Positions 391-25,042 of a stretch of DNA of 25,042 nucleotides are shown here, in pieces. The position numbers and the translations under genes are program-made. The DNA lies in IMG/VR virus record IMGVR_UViG_3300034062_002297, positions 1 through 25,042 of that record; one strand, 5' to 3'. How positions within the stretch are numbered: position 1 is the first letter of the stretch; each line of letters starts with the position of its first letter. This stretch comes from a virus. Lineage: Duplodnaviria; Caudoviricetes. The notes under the pieces were generated by a model. It was not told the DNA's origin, ran no database searches, and saw only the letters and a program-made list of their open reading frames with translations.

Positions 391-598
391 CTACTTAAGG
401 GCGTTAAAAGCCCTTGGCTGGCTCAACCTCAACACCGACTTTAGAGCGAACAATGTCAGCGGTGACTATCCGCAAAGTTATAAGCAACATGTTGGCGGGA
501 TGTTTGGGTTGTCAAAGTTCTCCAGTAAAGAAAGCCTCGACATCATCACTGGCAACGAGCTAGTAGCGGTGGCACTGAGGGAGGGTTGGAAGGAATGA
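383..598 (+). CDS. hypothetical protein (71 aa, MSDYLRALK...)
   Basis: ATG at 383 preceded by GGAGG; stop TGA 596-598 overlaps the ATG of the mom-like gene. Confidence 0.7.
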   Translation: MSDYLRALKALGWLNLNTDFRANNVSGDYPQSYKQHVGGMFGLSKFSSKESLDIITGNELVAVALREGWKE

Positions 599-1158
599 GT
601 TTATATTTTAGCGGTGATGGTGTACCAGTTGCACAACCATTGTTCCAAATGGATGGAGACGGTGCAATTCCGATCTCACCGCTCCAGTTTAAATTCATTT
701 CAATTGACGTTCCAACTGCAATAGAACTTAATAGATTTTGGCATAGCAAATTACCAAACGTAGTTCCGTCAAACATTTACCGAACTTATGGATTCTGTTA
801 TGCAGCGGAATTTGACAACAGGTTTTACGCTTGTGCCATTTGGTCAATGCCGGTTGCAAGGATGATCAAAGGAAACGTTTACGAACTTCGTCGTTTGGCA
901 ATTTCGGAGTTGTCCCCTAAAAATACAGCAAGCAGGTTTATATCATGGATGGTAAAAGACATTAAAAAACGATTTCCAGAACTGGATCGTTTGATTTCTT
1001 ACCAAGATACGGAAGTTCACTCGGGAACGATTTACAAAGCGTCTGGTTGGGAGATATCAGGCAATAGCGTAGGCGGGGAATGGACAAGAACCTCAAGGAA
1101 AAGAAATCCATCACAAGCAACCGCTCCAAAAGTGCGTTGGGAGAAGCAACTAAGATGA
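595..1158 (+). CDS. Mom-like GNAT-fold DNA adenine modification enzyme
   Basis: Motifs typical of Mom homologues: WHSKLP, ELRRLAI, PKNTASRFIS, LISYQDTEVHSGTIYKASGW, C-terminal KVRW. ATG 595 is coupled to the upstream TGA. Neighbours a DNA methyltransferase. Confidence 0.85.
   Translation: MSLYFSGDGVPVAQPLFQMDGDGAIPISPLQFKFISIDVPTAIELNRFWHSKLPNVVPSNIYRTYGFCYAAEFDNRFYACAIWSMPVARMIKGNVYELRRLAISELSPKNTASRFISWMVKDIKKRFPELDRLISYQDTEVHSGTIYKASGWEISGNSVGGEWTRTSRKRNPSQATAPKVRWEKQLR
611..686 (+). tRNA. atypical tRNA-Gly(UCC)-like element nested in the mom-like CDS
   Basis: 76 nt. Perfect 7-bp acceptor stem GCGGTGA/TCACCGC, U73, encoded CCA (684-686). D stem GTGT/GCAC. Anticodon stem CCATT/AATGG with loop GTTCCA containing TCC. 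T arm GACGG-TGCAATT-CCG(A)TC. Confidence 0.75.
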
Positions 1159-1292: not shown

Positions 1293-2062
1293 CTCACATG
1301 AGTCTATTCTCCGGAATCGGTGGTATAGACATTGCAGCGGAATGGGCCGGGTTTAATACTATTTGCATGGTCGAAAAGGACGAATTCTGCCAACGGGTAT
1401 TGAGAAAGAACTTTCCGGACGTGCCAATCTTCGGAGACATAAAAGAATTTGATGGAACACCCTATCGCGAACAAGTTACTTTACTCTCGGCTGGTTGGCC
1501 TTGTCAGCCTTTTAGTCAATCGGGCCAAAAGAAAGCCTCTGACGACGAGCGAAATTTGTGGCCCGACACCGTTAGGGTGTTGGAGCAAGTTAAACCAGCA
1601 TGGTTCTTGGGAGAGAACGTGTCTGGACTCTTTGCCGCTGAATCTGGATTCTTCTTCAGACGACTCCTTGATGACTTGGCCGCGTTGGGGTATAGCGTTG
1701 GATGGGCGAATTATGGAGCTTATCATATTGGAGCCACACATAAGCGTAAAAGACTCTTCATTCTTGCCCACGCCGCTCGCGAGCCAAGACTACAAACCGG
1801 TGAGGCGTTTGGCCCCGAGCGAAAAAGTAAAAGCCCACGGGAAGATGCTAGTCGCCGTCATTGGCAACCAATTAGAGGAGGTGACTGGAAACAATGGGAA
1901 GTCAACCCAACGGTTGTATCTCAACCCCGAGTTCGTAGAAACGTTAATGGGATTTCCGATCGGGTGGACAGAATAACCTCTTTAGGAAACGCGGTGGTTC
2001 CGCAACAGGTTTACCCATTGATTATGGCAATAAGGAACGCAATAGAAAATGATAGTAAATAA
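1289..2062 (+). CDS. DNA (cytosine-5)-methyltransferase, alpha (catalytic) chain
   Basis: Motif I SLFSGIGG, motif IV GWPCQPFS, motif VI ENV, motif VIII HKRKRLFI, motif X LGNAVVPQ. Short (257 aa) with no evident motif IX in this frame. Confidence 0.93.
   Translation: MTHMSLFSGIGGIDIAAEWAGFNTICMVEKDEFCQRVLRKNFPDVPIFGDIKEFDGTPYREQVTLLSAGWPCQPFSQSGQKKASDDERNLWPDTVRVLEQVKPAWFLGENVSGLFAAESGFFFRRLLDDLAALGYSVGWANYGAYHIGATHKRKRLFILAHAAREPRLQTGEAFGPERKSKSPREDASRRHWQPIRGGDWKQWEVNPTVVSQPRVRRNVNGISDRVDRITSLGNAVVPQQVYPLIMAIRNAIENDSK
1452..1976 (+). CDS. nested alternative-frame beta chain of the C5 methyltransferase (TRD-like region plus motif IX); start uncertain
   Basis: Stop-free +1 frame inside the MTase gene containing TWPRWG, LPTPLASQD and C-terminal LNPEFVETLMGFPIGWT (motif IX-like). 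Confidence 0.75.
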   Translation: MEHPIANKLLYSRLVGLVSLLVNRAKRKPLTTSEICGPTPLGCWSKLNQHGSWERTCLDSLPLNLDSSSDDSLMTWPRWGIALDGRIMELIILEPHISVKDSSFLPTPLASQDYKPVRRLAPSEKVKAHGKMLVAVIGNQLEEVTGNNGKSTQRLYLNPEFVETLMGFPIGWTE

Positions 2063-2427: not shown

Positions 2428-2474
2428 GGATAGCAGGATGCATCCGGCGGGTTCGATTCCCGCCCTATCCTCCA
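2428..2474 (+). ncRNA. tRNA-like minihelix (acceptor stem + T arm + UCCA, no D or anticodon arm)
   Basis: GGATAG/CTATCC acceptor helix, GGCGGG-TTCGATT-CCCGCC T arm, T-CCA 3' end; the linker is the palindrome GGATGCATCC. Confidence 0.6.
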
Positions 2475-3494: not shown

Positions 3495-4628
3495 TTACGG
3501 CCACGTTGCAATCGCTACTCTTTTCCATGTATCTGTTGCGGTGCAAACATAAATGTAGTTAGCATCCCATCGAATTGCTCCAGCAGATCCAGTAGCCGTA
3601 GCAGAAGCTGGCGGGTTAGATAGAGAAATTCGCAACTGAGGAGCATTTACAAGGTTATAGAATGTTGCATTGCCACCACTTCTAGAAATACTTAATGCTG
3701 TAAAGTTATAAGCACCAGCATCGGTATGGGCATCCAATGCCCAGTCAGCTCCAACGTTACCTCCGCTCTCTGCTCCAGCAGTAGCTTGCATAGTCCATCT
3801 GGTAGAACCTGAACTTCTATACAGAATAGGTTTCGATGAGCCTGCTGGTCTATTAACTTGGAAGTATGGAGCTACTACATCGTTAGTAAATGTAGCAGTC
3901 GTTGCAGTTAATATAAACTGAAGAGTAGGAGCAGCAGTACCGTTTGCAGTTACGTTAAATAGTAACTGAGTACCGTTTGCCGTAGAAGTCCAAGTTTGAG
4001 CCGCTTGAGCTTGAATACTAGCTTTACCGTTAACTAAACTGCTACTATTATGCCCGCCAAAGTCTAACTGACCTAATAAATCTCCTGACTGTACTGCGGT
4101 TCTACTAGCGTAAGTTCCTCTACTTGTTCTAAATGCTAAGACGTGACCTTGAGCATTTCCTGTAGATTCGTAGAGAGTATATGGAAAGGCTGAAGATTCT
4201 TCTGCTATAAATTGCGCGACGAGGTTACTACCACCATAGCCAGCGGGAATAGTTGAAATAGTTCCTGACGATTGAAAAACTCCACCAGCTACCGTTGCGG
4301 ACGGTGACTTGAAGATGTTCTGAGCCGTGAACGTGTTTGACGCACCGGAACTAACGGGTATCCAAGTATAAGGGGTAAGAGTTACCGGCCCGGGGTATTG
4401 GGCTTCAACAAGAATAGCATTTTGCATTAACCCAAAAGCGGTATCCCCCGGATCTACTTGGCAAATAAACCCGTCAGAGTTTTCTTCCGATACGGTGATA
4501 ATGCCCGTAGTGTTGTTGACGATACGAAACGCAACGGTAGCGGAATCGAACACCATCCGTTGGACTGATGTTTGAGCGTTGAACGTAACCGGAGTTCCGG
4601 CGGTTAGATTATTGATGTTTAATGGCAT
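3495..4628 (-). CDS. tail fibre / receptor-binding protein
   Basis: Rich in T/G/S/A with beta character; SRGT...VQSGDLLGQLDFGG module; C-terminal WDANYIYVCTATDTWKRVAIATW typical of phage fibres; distal position in the tail module. Confidence 0.8.
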   Translation of the reverse strand: MPLNINNLTAGTPVTFNAQTSVQRMVFDSATVAFRIVNNTTGIITVSEENSDGFICQVDPGDTAFGLMQNAILVEAQYPGPVTLTPYTWIPVSSGASNTFTAQNIFKSPSATVAGGVFQSSGTISTIPAGYGGSNLVAQFIAEESSAFPYTLYESTGNAQGHVLAFRTSRGTYASRTAVQSGDLLGQLDFGGHNSSSLVNGKASIQAQAAQTWTSTANGTQLLFNVTANGTAAPTLQFILTATTATFTNDVVAPYFQVNRPAGSSKPILYRSSGSTRWTMQATAGAESGGNVGADWALDAHTDAGAYNFTALSISRSGGNATFYNLVNAPQLRISLSNPPASATATGSAGAIRWDANYIYVCTATDTWKRVAIATWP

Positions 4629-24519: not shown

Positions 24520-24863
24520 CTTGAACTTGGTCAAATTGGTTCCAAAATTTCAAAAATTTTATACCCCACCCCCATTTTTGATTTTTCAACTTTCAGGGGT
24601 AGGCCGATTGCTGTTTTGACCCGCCACCAGCAGCGTTTTCACTTTTGAAAAACGCCTACAAGCCAAAATTTATTGCTATCATATTGGGGTCTAATAAAGT
24701 AGCATCTTCGGCTCTACAGGGTAGTTTAAACTTTTTCAGGTTACTGTTTAAGCCATTTATAAGCGTACCGATTATTAGATAGTTGGCATATGAGCAGTGT
24801 ATAGGATTCAACCTCTCAGCGTTTTCTGAGCGTAGCGTAGGAAAACGCGAAATTTTTTTTTGG

Positions 24864-25042
24864 GGTCCAATTGGCGGTCCAATTGGCGGTCCAATTGGCG
24901 GTCCAATTGTCGGTCGGTCGGTCCTCGAGCGGTCCTCGAGCGGTCCAATTGTCGGTCGGTCGGTCCTCGAGCGGTCCTCGAGCGGTCCAATTGGCGGTCC
25001 AATTGTCGGTCGGTCCTCGAGCGGTCCTCGAGCGGTCCAATT
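24864..25042. repeat. modular tandem repeat array (GGTCCAATTG[G/T]C, GGTCCTCGAGC, GGTC), runs off the window edge
   Basis: Parsed by hand as A A A A' C C B B A' C C B B A A' C B B A(partial); non-coding. Confidence 0.95.

Follow-up and report, generated by a model that had tools for sequence, protein, structure and literature searches.

The stretch of DNA analysed here (the window; 25,042 nt of IMG/VR record IMGVR_UViG_3300034062_002297) covers the late region of a tailed phage together with some of its early region, recognised by terminase, portal, capsid and endolysin matches. At 595-1158 on the plus strand it encodes a Mom-family GNAT protein of 187 aa with a folded core from about residue 33, and the 5′ part of the same gene carries a 76 nt tRNA-Gly(UCC)-like cloverleaf (611-686, plus strand) that is read in frame as residues 6-31 (codons 6-31; nt 17-92 of the gene). 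The protein matches Pfam PF25680 (Mom) with an E-value of 2.5e-13 and 50.6 bits against a curated cut-off of 27.1, and phrog_1384 with an E-value of 1.6e-22. Mu Mom (8bv8) is its top PDB match by sequence and by fold, the latter from an AlphaFold2 model with a pLDDT of 87 for which Foldseek ranked 8bv8 first (E 3.2e-9, TM 0.67).

Mom modification has been reported in print to protect DNA from restriction. Mu Mom moves glycine from Gly-tRNA-Gly onto the N6 of adenine (Silva et al. 2026, PMC13219725), as the original prediction had supposed. According to the same source it accepts all three E. coli tRNA-Gly isoacceptors and rejects glycine on tRNA-Ala, and formation of 6-NcmdA from Gly-tRNA-Gly is demonstrated there for Mu Mom only, with two homologues mentioned (PMC13219725). 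The window protein has the GNAT fold in common with Mu Mom at 16-18% identity, and in the alignment its H50, R100, S113, D138 and Y147 correspond to Mu H58, R111, S124, D149 and Y159. Of the four residues essential in Mu (R111, S124, D149 and R151), the first three are kept, whereas R151, along with Y59, W48 and W181, is not; E140 occupies the R151 position, and an R151 equivalent is absent from all eight other proteins aligned with the window protein. The essential helix-turn-helix-like insertion of Mu Mom also appears to be missing, as the window model has no helices past residue 149 and the region is shorter in the alignment too. Because these residues are missing and the helical insertion seems to be so too, the activity and amino-acid specificity of the window Mom can only be assumed; we infer that its clade probably shares the chemistry of Mu Mom, for which the glycine identity of the partner RNA provides indirect support.

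The cloverleaf is complete. Its acceptor stem begins with G1, C2 and G3 and pairs 611-617 with 676-682 over 7 bp, so that G1-C72, C2-G71 and G3-C70 are all present, as are U8 and A14, and it is followed by the discriminator U683 and an encoded CCA at 684-686. The D arm (620-634) has a 4-bp stem and a 7-nt loop, ACCAGTT, whose A627 is the partner by covariation of G664 in the T loop. The anticodon arm (637-652) has a 5-bp stem, 6 bp in most relatives, and a 6-nt loop, GTTCCA, with TCC at 644-646, while the T arm (658-675) combines a TGCAATT loop with a stem of G49-C65, A50-U64 and C51-G63 interrupted by the unpaired A673, a bulge located between positions 63 and 64 of the canonical numbering. 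All the cloverleaf features that the original prediction had listed, deviations included, could be found in the sequence. The window family has the cloverleaf and the L-shape tertiary contacts of a canonical tRNA-Gly, and the window departs from that model in its 6-nt anticodon loop (canonically 7 nt) and in the bulged A673 that breaks the 5-bp T stem.

Detection by standard tools was threshold-dependent. At 611-686, ARAGORN called no tRNA at its default threshold and Rfam gave no tRNA match, but with the threshold relaxed, a check suggested with the original prediction, ARAGORN drew the same cloverleaf. The folding z-score of the window element is -3.2, with 1 of 200 shuffles equally stable. 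Its predicted minimum-energy fold, however, is another long hairpin, at -30.4 against -21.8 kcal/mol for the cloverleaf, a predicted advantage of 8.6 kcal/mol. Because the minimum-energy prediction is a different hairpin, the window by itself does not prove the cloverleaf, and energy alone gives this structure in just 27 of 90 cores of the window's subtype. An 8-nt frameshift-suppressor anticodon loop was considered and ruled out: the closing pair 31-38 forms in 87 of the 90 cores, with compensation, so the loop is 6 nt. The start codon and leader (595-603) are predicted to pair with 690-698 and extend the acceptor stem; this pairing has a z-score of -6.3 in the window, as compared with a family mean of 0.0 and values below -2 in only 7 of 120 relatives, and as a conserved switch it was therefore rejected. 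A scan for promoters and terminators returned counts no better than chance, and three metatranscriptome contig sets of 1.4-3.5 million letters yielded no match, a result that speaks neither for nor against expression.

Three other features of the window may be recorded here. At 2433-2474 (plus strand), just 5′ of a GP88-family ORF, lies a tRNA-like 3′ half with a T arm containing GTTCGATT and ending in TCCA. It is conserved in the close relative L181 exactly to the CCA and divergent beyond, gives partial Rfam tmRNA matches, and its exact pattern was found only in the window's own contig; it looks like an attachment-site core or a tRNA remnant. A 175-aa ORF at 1449-1976 (plus strand) is nested in a second frame of a C5 cytosine methyltransferase gene (1289-2062) for which the Pfam match covers residues 1-165 only, an arrangement that fits a two-subunit nested methyltransferase. 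Short tandem repeats, seen as repetitive translations, occupy the end of the window (24860-25042).

The case for the cloverleaf rests on homologues. The best 120 of 306 homologous proteins were aligned and 179 loci were fetched, in which ARAGORN, run at falling thresholds, called a tRNA within the 5′ portion of mom at 63 (default threshold), 102, 148 and 156 loci, as compared with 7, 10, 25 and 153 calls elsewhere in the same loci at matching thresholds. Three of the 179 loci were without the anchor motif and could not be counted, and the 5′ calls lay nearly all at a single offset. Since the homologues carry the cloverleaf, a chance origin can be excluded. A 76-nt segment was then excised from each locus at a constant distance from a protein motif, which left 173 usable loci with 138 distinct cores. 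Ninety of these belong to the window's type (subtype a), with a 7-nt D loop and a 6-bp anticodon stem bearing a 6-nt loop, and 30 to subtype b, with an 8-nt D loop and an anticodon arm of canonical length in which bases 32 and 38 are paired in 27 of 30. A pairing filter set aside the other 18 cores; a covariance model recovered the RNA, indel-shifted or upstream, in 10 of these loci and not in the other eight, so that 130 of the 138 distinct homologous loci of the window's clade carry the cloverleaf.

In an ungapped alignment of the 120 cores, 90.7% of cells are paired, a figure that counts subtype b rows as broken in two helices, as compared with 39-50% for structures slid along the same alignment. 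As the filter itself favours paired cores, the compensatory changes are the informative result. Two-sided changes occur in 17 of 22 pairs, and the consensus fold computed with RNAalifold contains the acceptor stem and the bulged T stem and, in part, the anticodon stem, although not the D stem. Changes were also mapped on a tree derived solely from the protein sequence that follows the element. Here the two members of a helix pair tend to change together on one branch, with ratios of 0.75-1.0 for 14 of the 15 variable pairs, the exception being a wobble pair at 0.14; for the background (n=1532 pairs) the mean ratio is 0.23, the 99th percentile 0.67 and the maximum 0.86. The tertiary contact between the D and T loops behaves likewise, positions 18 and 55 being G/U in 70 of 90 cores and A/G in 15 of 90 and co-changing 14 of 15 times. 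Four-fold degenerate sites, moreover, retain a single base at a frequency of 0.72 within the element (9 sites), as opposed to 0.39 for the protein core (22 sites). As judged from these comparisons, the cloverleaf is under selection at the RNA level, and the covariation on which the original prediction was to stand or fall is seen both in the stems and in the contact between the D and T loops. Because 18 and 55 covary, the A and G of the window can be read as a compensatory tertiary pair, and the replacement of GG by UU in the D loop, which had been put forward as a hallmark, loses that status.

The same nucleotides are likely to be translated as well, to judge from the reading frames. In the mom frame, 96 of 120 loci have an ATG no more than 8 codons 5′ of G1, as compared with 6 and 18 in the other two frames; the mom frame is open across the element in 120 of 120, compared with 13 and 15 for the other frames, although ranking the loci by full-length similarity biases these counts towards open frames. 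Changes in element length are of +3 or -3 in five loci and of +1 in two, where the start lies inside the element or the 5′ half is in another phase. In the structure model, residues 1-27 have no secondary structure and pLDDT values of 47, 53 and 77 for successive blocks of ten residues. Protein searches ranked by the core were also used (a single-sequence locus search with the core alone yielded just 7 loci), and under this ranking the element's peptide is present in 88 of 120 proteins at a cut of 10 bits, with a decoy maximum of 3.7; among the other 32, some gene calls begin past the element and others hold only traces of the peptide. Such N-terminal traces are seen in the fold-less relatives L055, L071, L072, L153 and L159 and in proteins such as P0101, P0262 and P0284. 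Because they persist after loss of the fold, the RNA-derived peptide may have gained some role. Individual loci show further arrangements: L149 has an intact in-frame copy with an ACC anticodon (717-792) upstream of a decayed copy at the usual site, in tandem, and a partial copy at the head of a short ORF farther upstream (292-351), and in L175 the RNA (3820-3895) lies 5′ of mom, out of frame and ahead of a separate ATG, so that the two are naturally unfused.

Linkage to mom was approached from the RNA side with a DNA pattern blind to Mom, which retrieved 119 viral loci, 109 of them with a Mom match downstream and 107 with that match in the same frame. Of the 10 loci with no downstream match, five were checked and all five have Mom in the record; in two of them mom carries the RNA in frame within its 3′ end, and these led to a second clade. 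A covariance model matches 74 of 80 core-ranked loci of this clade, and the remaining 6 weakly with filters off (19-26 bits). Seventy-one of the loci could be parsed by script and 9 could not, leaving 59 distinct RNAs, of which 6, 18 and 30 lie in the respective reading frames; five are situated after the stop codon and 6 across it. A looser DNA pattern found 120 loci. Among the 80 with full flanks, 71 have Mom on the same strand, with the RNA on the 5′ side in 25 and on the 3′ side in 46, and a Mom match was found in 23 of the 40 with short flanks. As for the nine full-flank loci without Mom, five end within 125 nt upstream, and the records of the other four hold one strong Mom match, two weak partial matches and none, respectively, although in the last a convergent ORF has motifs that look Mom-like. 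We estimate that about 900 IMG/VR stretches match one narrow pattern. At L404 a minus-strand copy (558-586) converges on an ORF with Mom-like motifs discernible by eye and unscored by PF25680, which is possibly a more distant partner enzyme. In the clade with a 3′ RNA (L316-L395, L517-L520, L528), mom often stands behind a ParB-like gene and, at some loci, ahead of terminase genes.

Cultured phages extend this range of positions. Of 14 loci chosen manually out of sets of 145 and 167 records, five carry the RNA: it follows the mom stop codon and is annotated as tRNA-Gly in Salinibacter phage B2_17, spans the stop in Arthrobacter phages Martha and Wyborn, occurs as two short intergenic copies in tandem in Psychrobacter phage Y8A, and in Microbacterium phage Appa lies on the opposite strand, annotated as tRNA-Gly and with a canonical T stem including G51-C63. 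The RNA was not found near mom in the other nine hand-picked loci or in Mu, Vegas, ICP1 and RaK2; the whole genomes of Mu, ICP1, phiEf11 and PM87 gave no match to the RNA model, and eight of the 138 distinct loci of the window's clade have no RNA nearby. Searches of the whole records of four element-free fragments found no copy, although at 14-34% completeness this leaves absence unproven. Because it is missing from several Mom loci, that of Mu included, the RNA must be dispensable, and its dispensability in many lineages agrees with the use of host tRNA by Mom.

This freedom of position bears directly on whether the RNA acts in cis, either by offering a processing site that restricts Mom synthesis or sets its timing, or by mimicking tRNA, so that Mom or GlyRS binds it and feeds back on translation. 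Such a role would suit an RNA found in or adjoining the mom transcript at nearly all loci and, in the window's clade, starting a few codons past the ATG, the more so as base pairing between trailer and start codon is predicted for the window, an alternative fold exists, and tRNA mimics are known from synthetase mRNAs (PMC9976931). The leader-trailer pairing is nevertheless not conserved, copies beyond the stop, tandem copies and a copy on the opposite strand also occur, and a mimic made only for binding has no obvious need for the CCA encoded in 107 of 120 RNAs of the window's clade and 48 of 59 of the second. An RNA that occurs in the coding 5′ end, in three frames at the 3′ end, beyond the stop, in tandem and on the other strand is better accommodated by action in trans, and we regard the cis reading as unlikely. 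Given the same positions, after the stop or on the opposite strand, the general purpose cannot be destruction of the mRNA, by which the original prediction had sought to couple enzyme and co-substrate supply.

What the RNA retains and what it has lost are both informative. The identity elements listed for glycine are G1-C72, C2-G71, U73, C35 and C36 (PMC9976931), a set that is complete in the window, as originally proposed, and conserved in its homologues: G1-C72 and C35/C36 are present in 120 of 120 RNAs of the window's clade and U73 in 107, the remaining 13 having A73. The wobble base is T in 119 of these 120, and CCA is absent from 13. In the second clade, for which the parser required the first three acceptor pairs, U73 is found in all 59 distinct RNAs and the anticodon is TCC in 38, ACC in 16, CCC in 2, GCC in 2 (one a visible mis-parse) and none in 1. 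A73 is the archaeal/eukaryal type of tRNA-Gly; it replaces U73 in 12 of the 30 RNAs of subtype b (for example L036:1922-1997), which may reflect hosts with a dimeric GlyRS.

In the T stem, by contrast with these retained marks, all 120 RNAs of the window's clade have a bulge (A in 119, G in one), as do 52 of 59 in the second clade, where it is A; it sits among pairs 49-65, 50-64 and 51-63, which set the affinity for EF-Tu (PMC7826273), and the bulged A would be expected to weaken EF-Tu binding. The second clade goes further, with an anticodon loop of 5 nt in 53 of 59, A at position 8 in 56 of 59 and, in 31 of 59, a reduced D arm and a total length of 67-71 nt. As far as the alignments reach, what is consistently unusual about the family is its bulged T stem together with an anticodon loop shortened to 5-6 nt. 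The GTGC T loop does not qualify as the hallmark it was first taken for, as the window's clade has TTC in 76 of 120 and TGC in 26; TGC or TGT, present in the window, is found in 27 of 120 RNAs of its clade and in 34 of 59 of the second.

The L-shape contacts that are kept and the wobble T of the window's clade would both suit a compact but otherwise ordinary phage tRNA-Gly, one that serves translation or makes up for host tRNA-Gly that Mom drains or host anticodon nucleases cleave, and it is in keeping with such a function that 63 of 179 loci pass ARAGORN at its default threshold and that the RNA is annotated as tRNA-Gly in two cultured phages. A bulge at the EF-Tu contact pairs and anticodon loops of 5-6 nt are nonetheless hard to reconcile with decoding, and in the second clade the D stem is lost in about half of the RNAs, the wobble base is free and U8 is lost. 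None of these deviations appears in the tRNA-Gly of phage A511, an ordinary one with no bulge and a 7-nt loop, which lies in a tRNA cluster far from mom. We consider a role in translation quite unlikely.

Unregulated Mom harms the host, and the RNA, uncharged or poorly charged, could instead inhibit or decoy the enzyme until late infection or in the prophage state. The near one-to-one linkage with Mom on phages would be explained in this way, as would the copies with no encoded CCA and the report of such RNAs on integrated islands (PMC3146451). Mom, however, is thought to read only the acceptor end of its tRNA (PMC13219725), and the fact that C35 and C36 are invariant all the same points to recognition by GlyRS, and hence to charging, which makes an inhibitor very unlikely. 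It is scarcely credible that the element is what remains of a tRNA gene or of an integration site, preserved by selection on its peptide and nothing else: the peptide traces in element-free relatives do allow the peptide a role, and the likeness to ordinary tRNA-Gly(TCC) does show where the element came from, but this reading is contradicted by the covariation results, with their repeated compensatory changes that also alter amino acids, as well as by constraint at synonymous sites, by the existence of two equally long stem registers and by the use of all three frames.

An RNA that keeps its synthetase marks and CCA, has dropped its decoding marks, is linked to Mom and is free in position, frame and strand is best explained as a trans-acting donor that escapes EF-Tu. 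Given that Mu Mom uses Gly-tRNA-Gly, we think it probable that the RNA is a dedicated glycyl donor of Mom, excluded from translation. This was also the interpretation favoured in the original prediction. Ribosomes would translate through the element to make Mom, and host RNase P, the enzyme that releases tRNAs, would together with 3′ trimming cut the RNA out of some of the transcripts. The host glycyl-tRNA synthetase would then charge the released RNA with glycine, EF-Tu and the ribosome would ignore it, and Mom would take the glycine from its own RNA to modify adenines in the phage DNA. The coding overlap would keep enzyme and donor together as one transferable unit, and could be tolerated in that the peptide it specifies is not part of the folded core. 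A point against such a donor is that excising it from a coding region costs the mRNA.

On balance, and more cautiously, we favour a wider proposal, in which these loci represent a widespread phage module whose single stretch of DNA specifies both a DNA-modifying enzyme and its private co-substrate. The latter would be a family of tRNA-Gly derivatives that are chargeable but invisible to EF-Tu and the ribosome, encoded in the enzyme's frame and released by host tRNA processing, and would form an aminoacyl-donor channel apart from translation. If so, phages would overcome the contest of Mom with EF-Tu over glycyl-tRNA by bringing a donor of their own, the tRNA-Gly genes annotated beside Mom in cultured phages would acquire a purpose, and a functional tRNA would be co-encoded in a translated coding sequence of bacterial type. 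The family would also offer a natural set of chargeable, translation-silent tRNA scaffolds.

Among known systems, Mu relies on the ordinary tRNA-Gly of its host, and the RNA model finds nothing in its genome, whereas the window phage has an embedded RNA. The main text of Silva et al. 2026 makes no mention of tRNA-like, overlap or cloverleaf (PMC13219725). Such an arrangement had been thought undescribed when the original prediction was made, but a tRNA-Gly-like locus embedded in mom is already in print: McMurdie et al. 2011 noted a 76-bp locus inside a mom homologue, within its initial 150 bp (PMC3146451). This Dehalococcoides pseudo-tRNA, reported in passing from 16 ssrA genomic islands and one marine fosmid with a 'DCC' anticodon in a 5-nt loop, is given no function in the relevant passages of that report (PMC3146451). 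Like the window element it is 76 nt long, lies in the first 150 bp of mom and has an NCC anticodon (TCC in the window), although the window loop is of 6 nt rather than 5; compared by description only, it very probably belongs to the same RNA family, and the donor reading, if correct, would explain it. The published passages on Dehalococcoides do not touch on how widespread the RNA is, on its variable placement, on a bulge in the T stem or on any connection with the co-substrate of Mom (PMC3146451). We found no paper in the open-access literature tying such an RNA to the co-substrate of Mom, nor any functional precedent there for this dual-coding, position-free architecture, and the sections consulted of a Mom preprint, PMC7824862, PMC5389517 and a 2026 ncRNA-mining preprint hold nothing further on a mom-embedded RNA.

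Transfer RNA shapes inside longer messages are known from the E. coli thrS operator, one of the tRNA mimics in synthetase mRNAs, and from viral tRNA-like structures (PMC9976931). The window element resembles these in its setting; as described there, however, the thrS operator lies in an untranslated leader and has no acceptor arm, whereas the window element is a complete cloverleaf with CCA in translated sequence. On the donor reading, a functional parallel is provided by the staphylococcal non-proteogenic tRNA-Gly(UCC) species NP1-NP3, which bind EF-Tu weakly and donate glycine to FmhB, FemA and FemB (PMC7826273). Like the window RNA, these are described as having glycine identity, a UCC anticodon, a short anticodon loop and T-stem features expected to weaken EF-Tu binding, and in each case the partner would be a tRNA-dependent GNAT transferase, as inferred for the window. 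The means differ, as the staphylococcal donors have A49-U65, U50-A64 and A51-U63 (the last a weak EF-Tu pair) and no bulge (PMC7826273), whereas the window has G-C, A-U and C-G with a bulge, and A51-U63 is confined to the unbulged minority, in which it is found in 5 of 7 second-clade RNAs. NP1-NP3 are, moreover, free-standing chromosomal genes, whereas the window RNA is phage-borne and overlaps the coding sequence of its partner. If the donor reading is correct, the phages would have adopted the strategy by which staphylococci supply glycine to their cell wall, but packed inside the gene of the enzyme that it serves.
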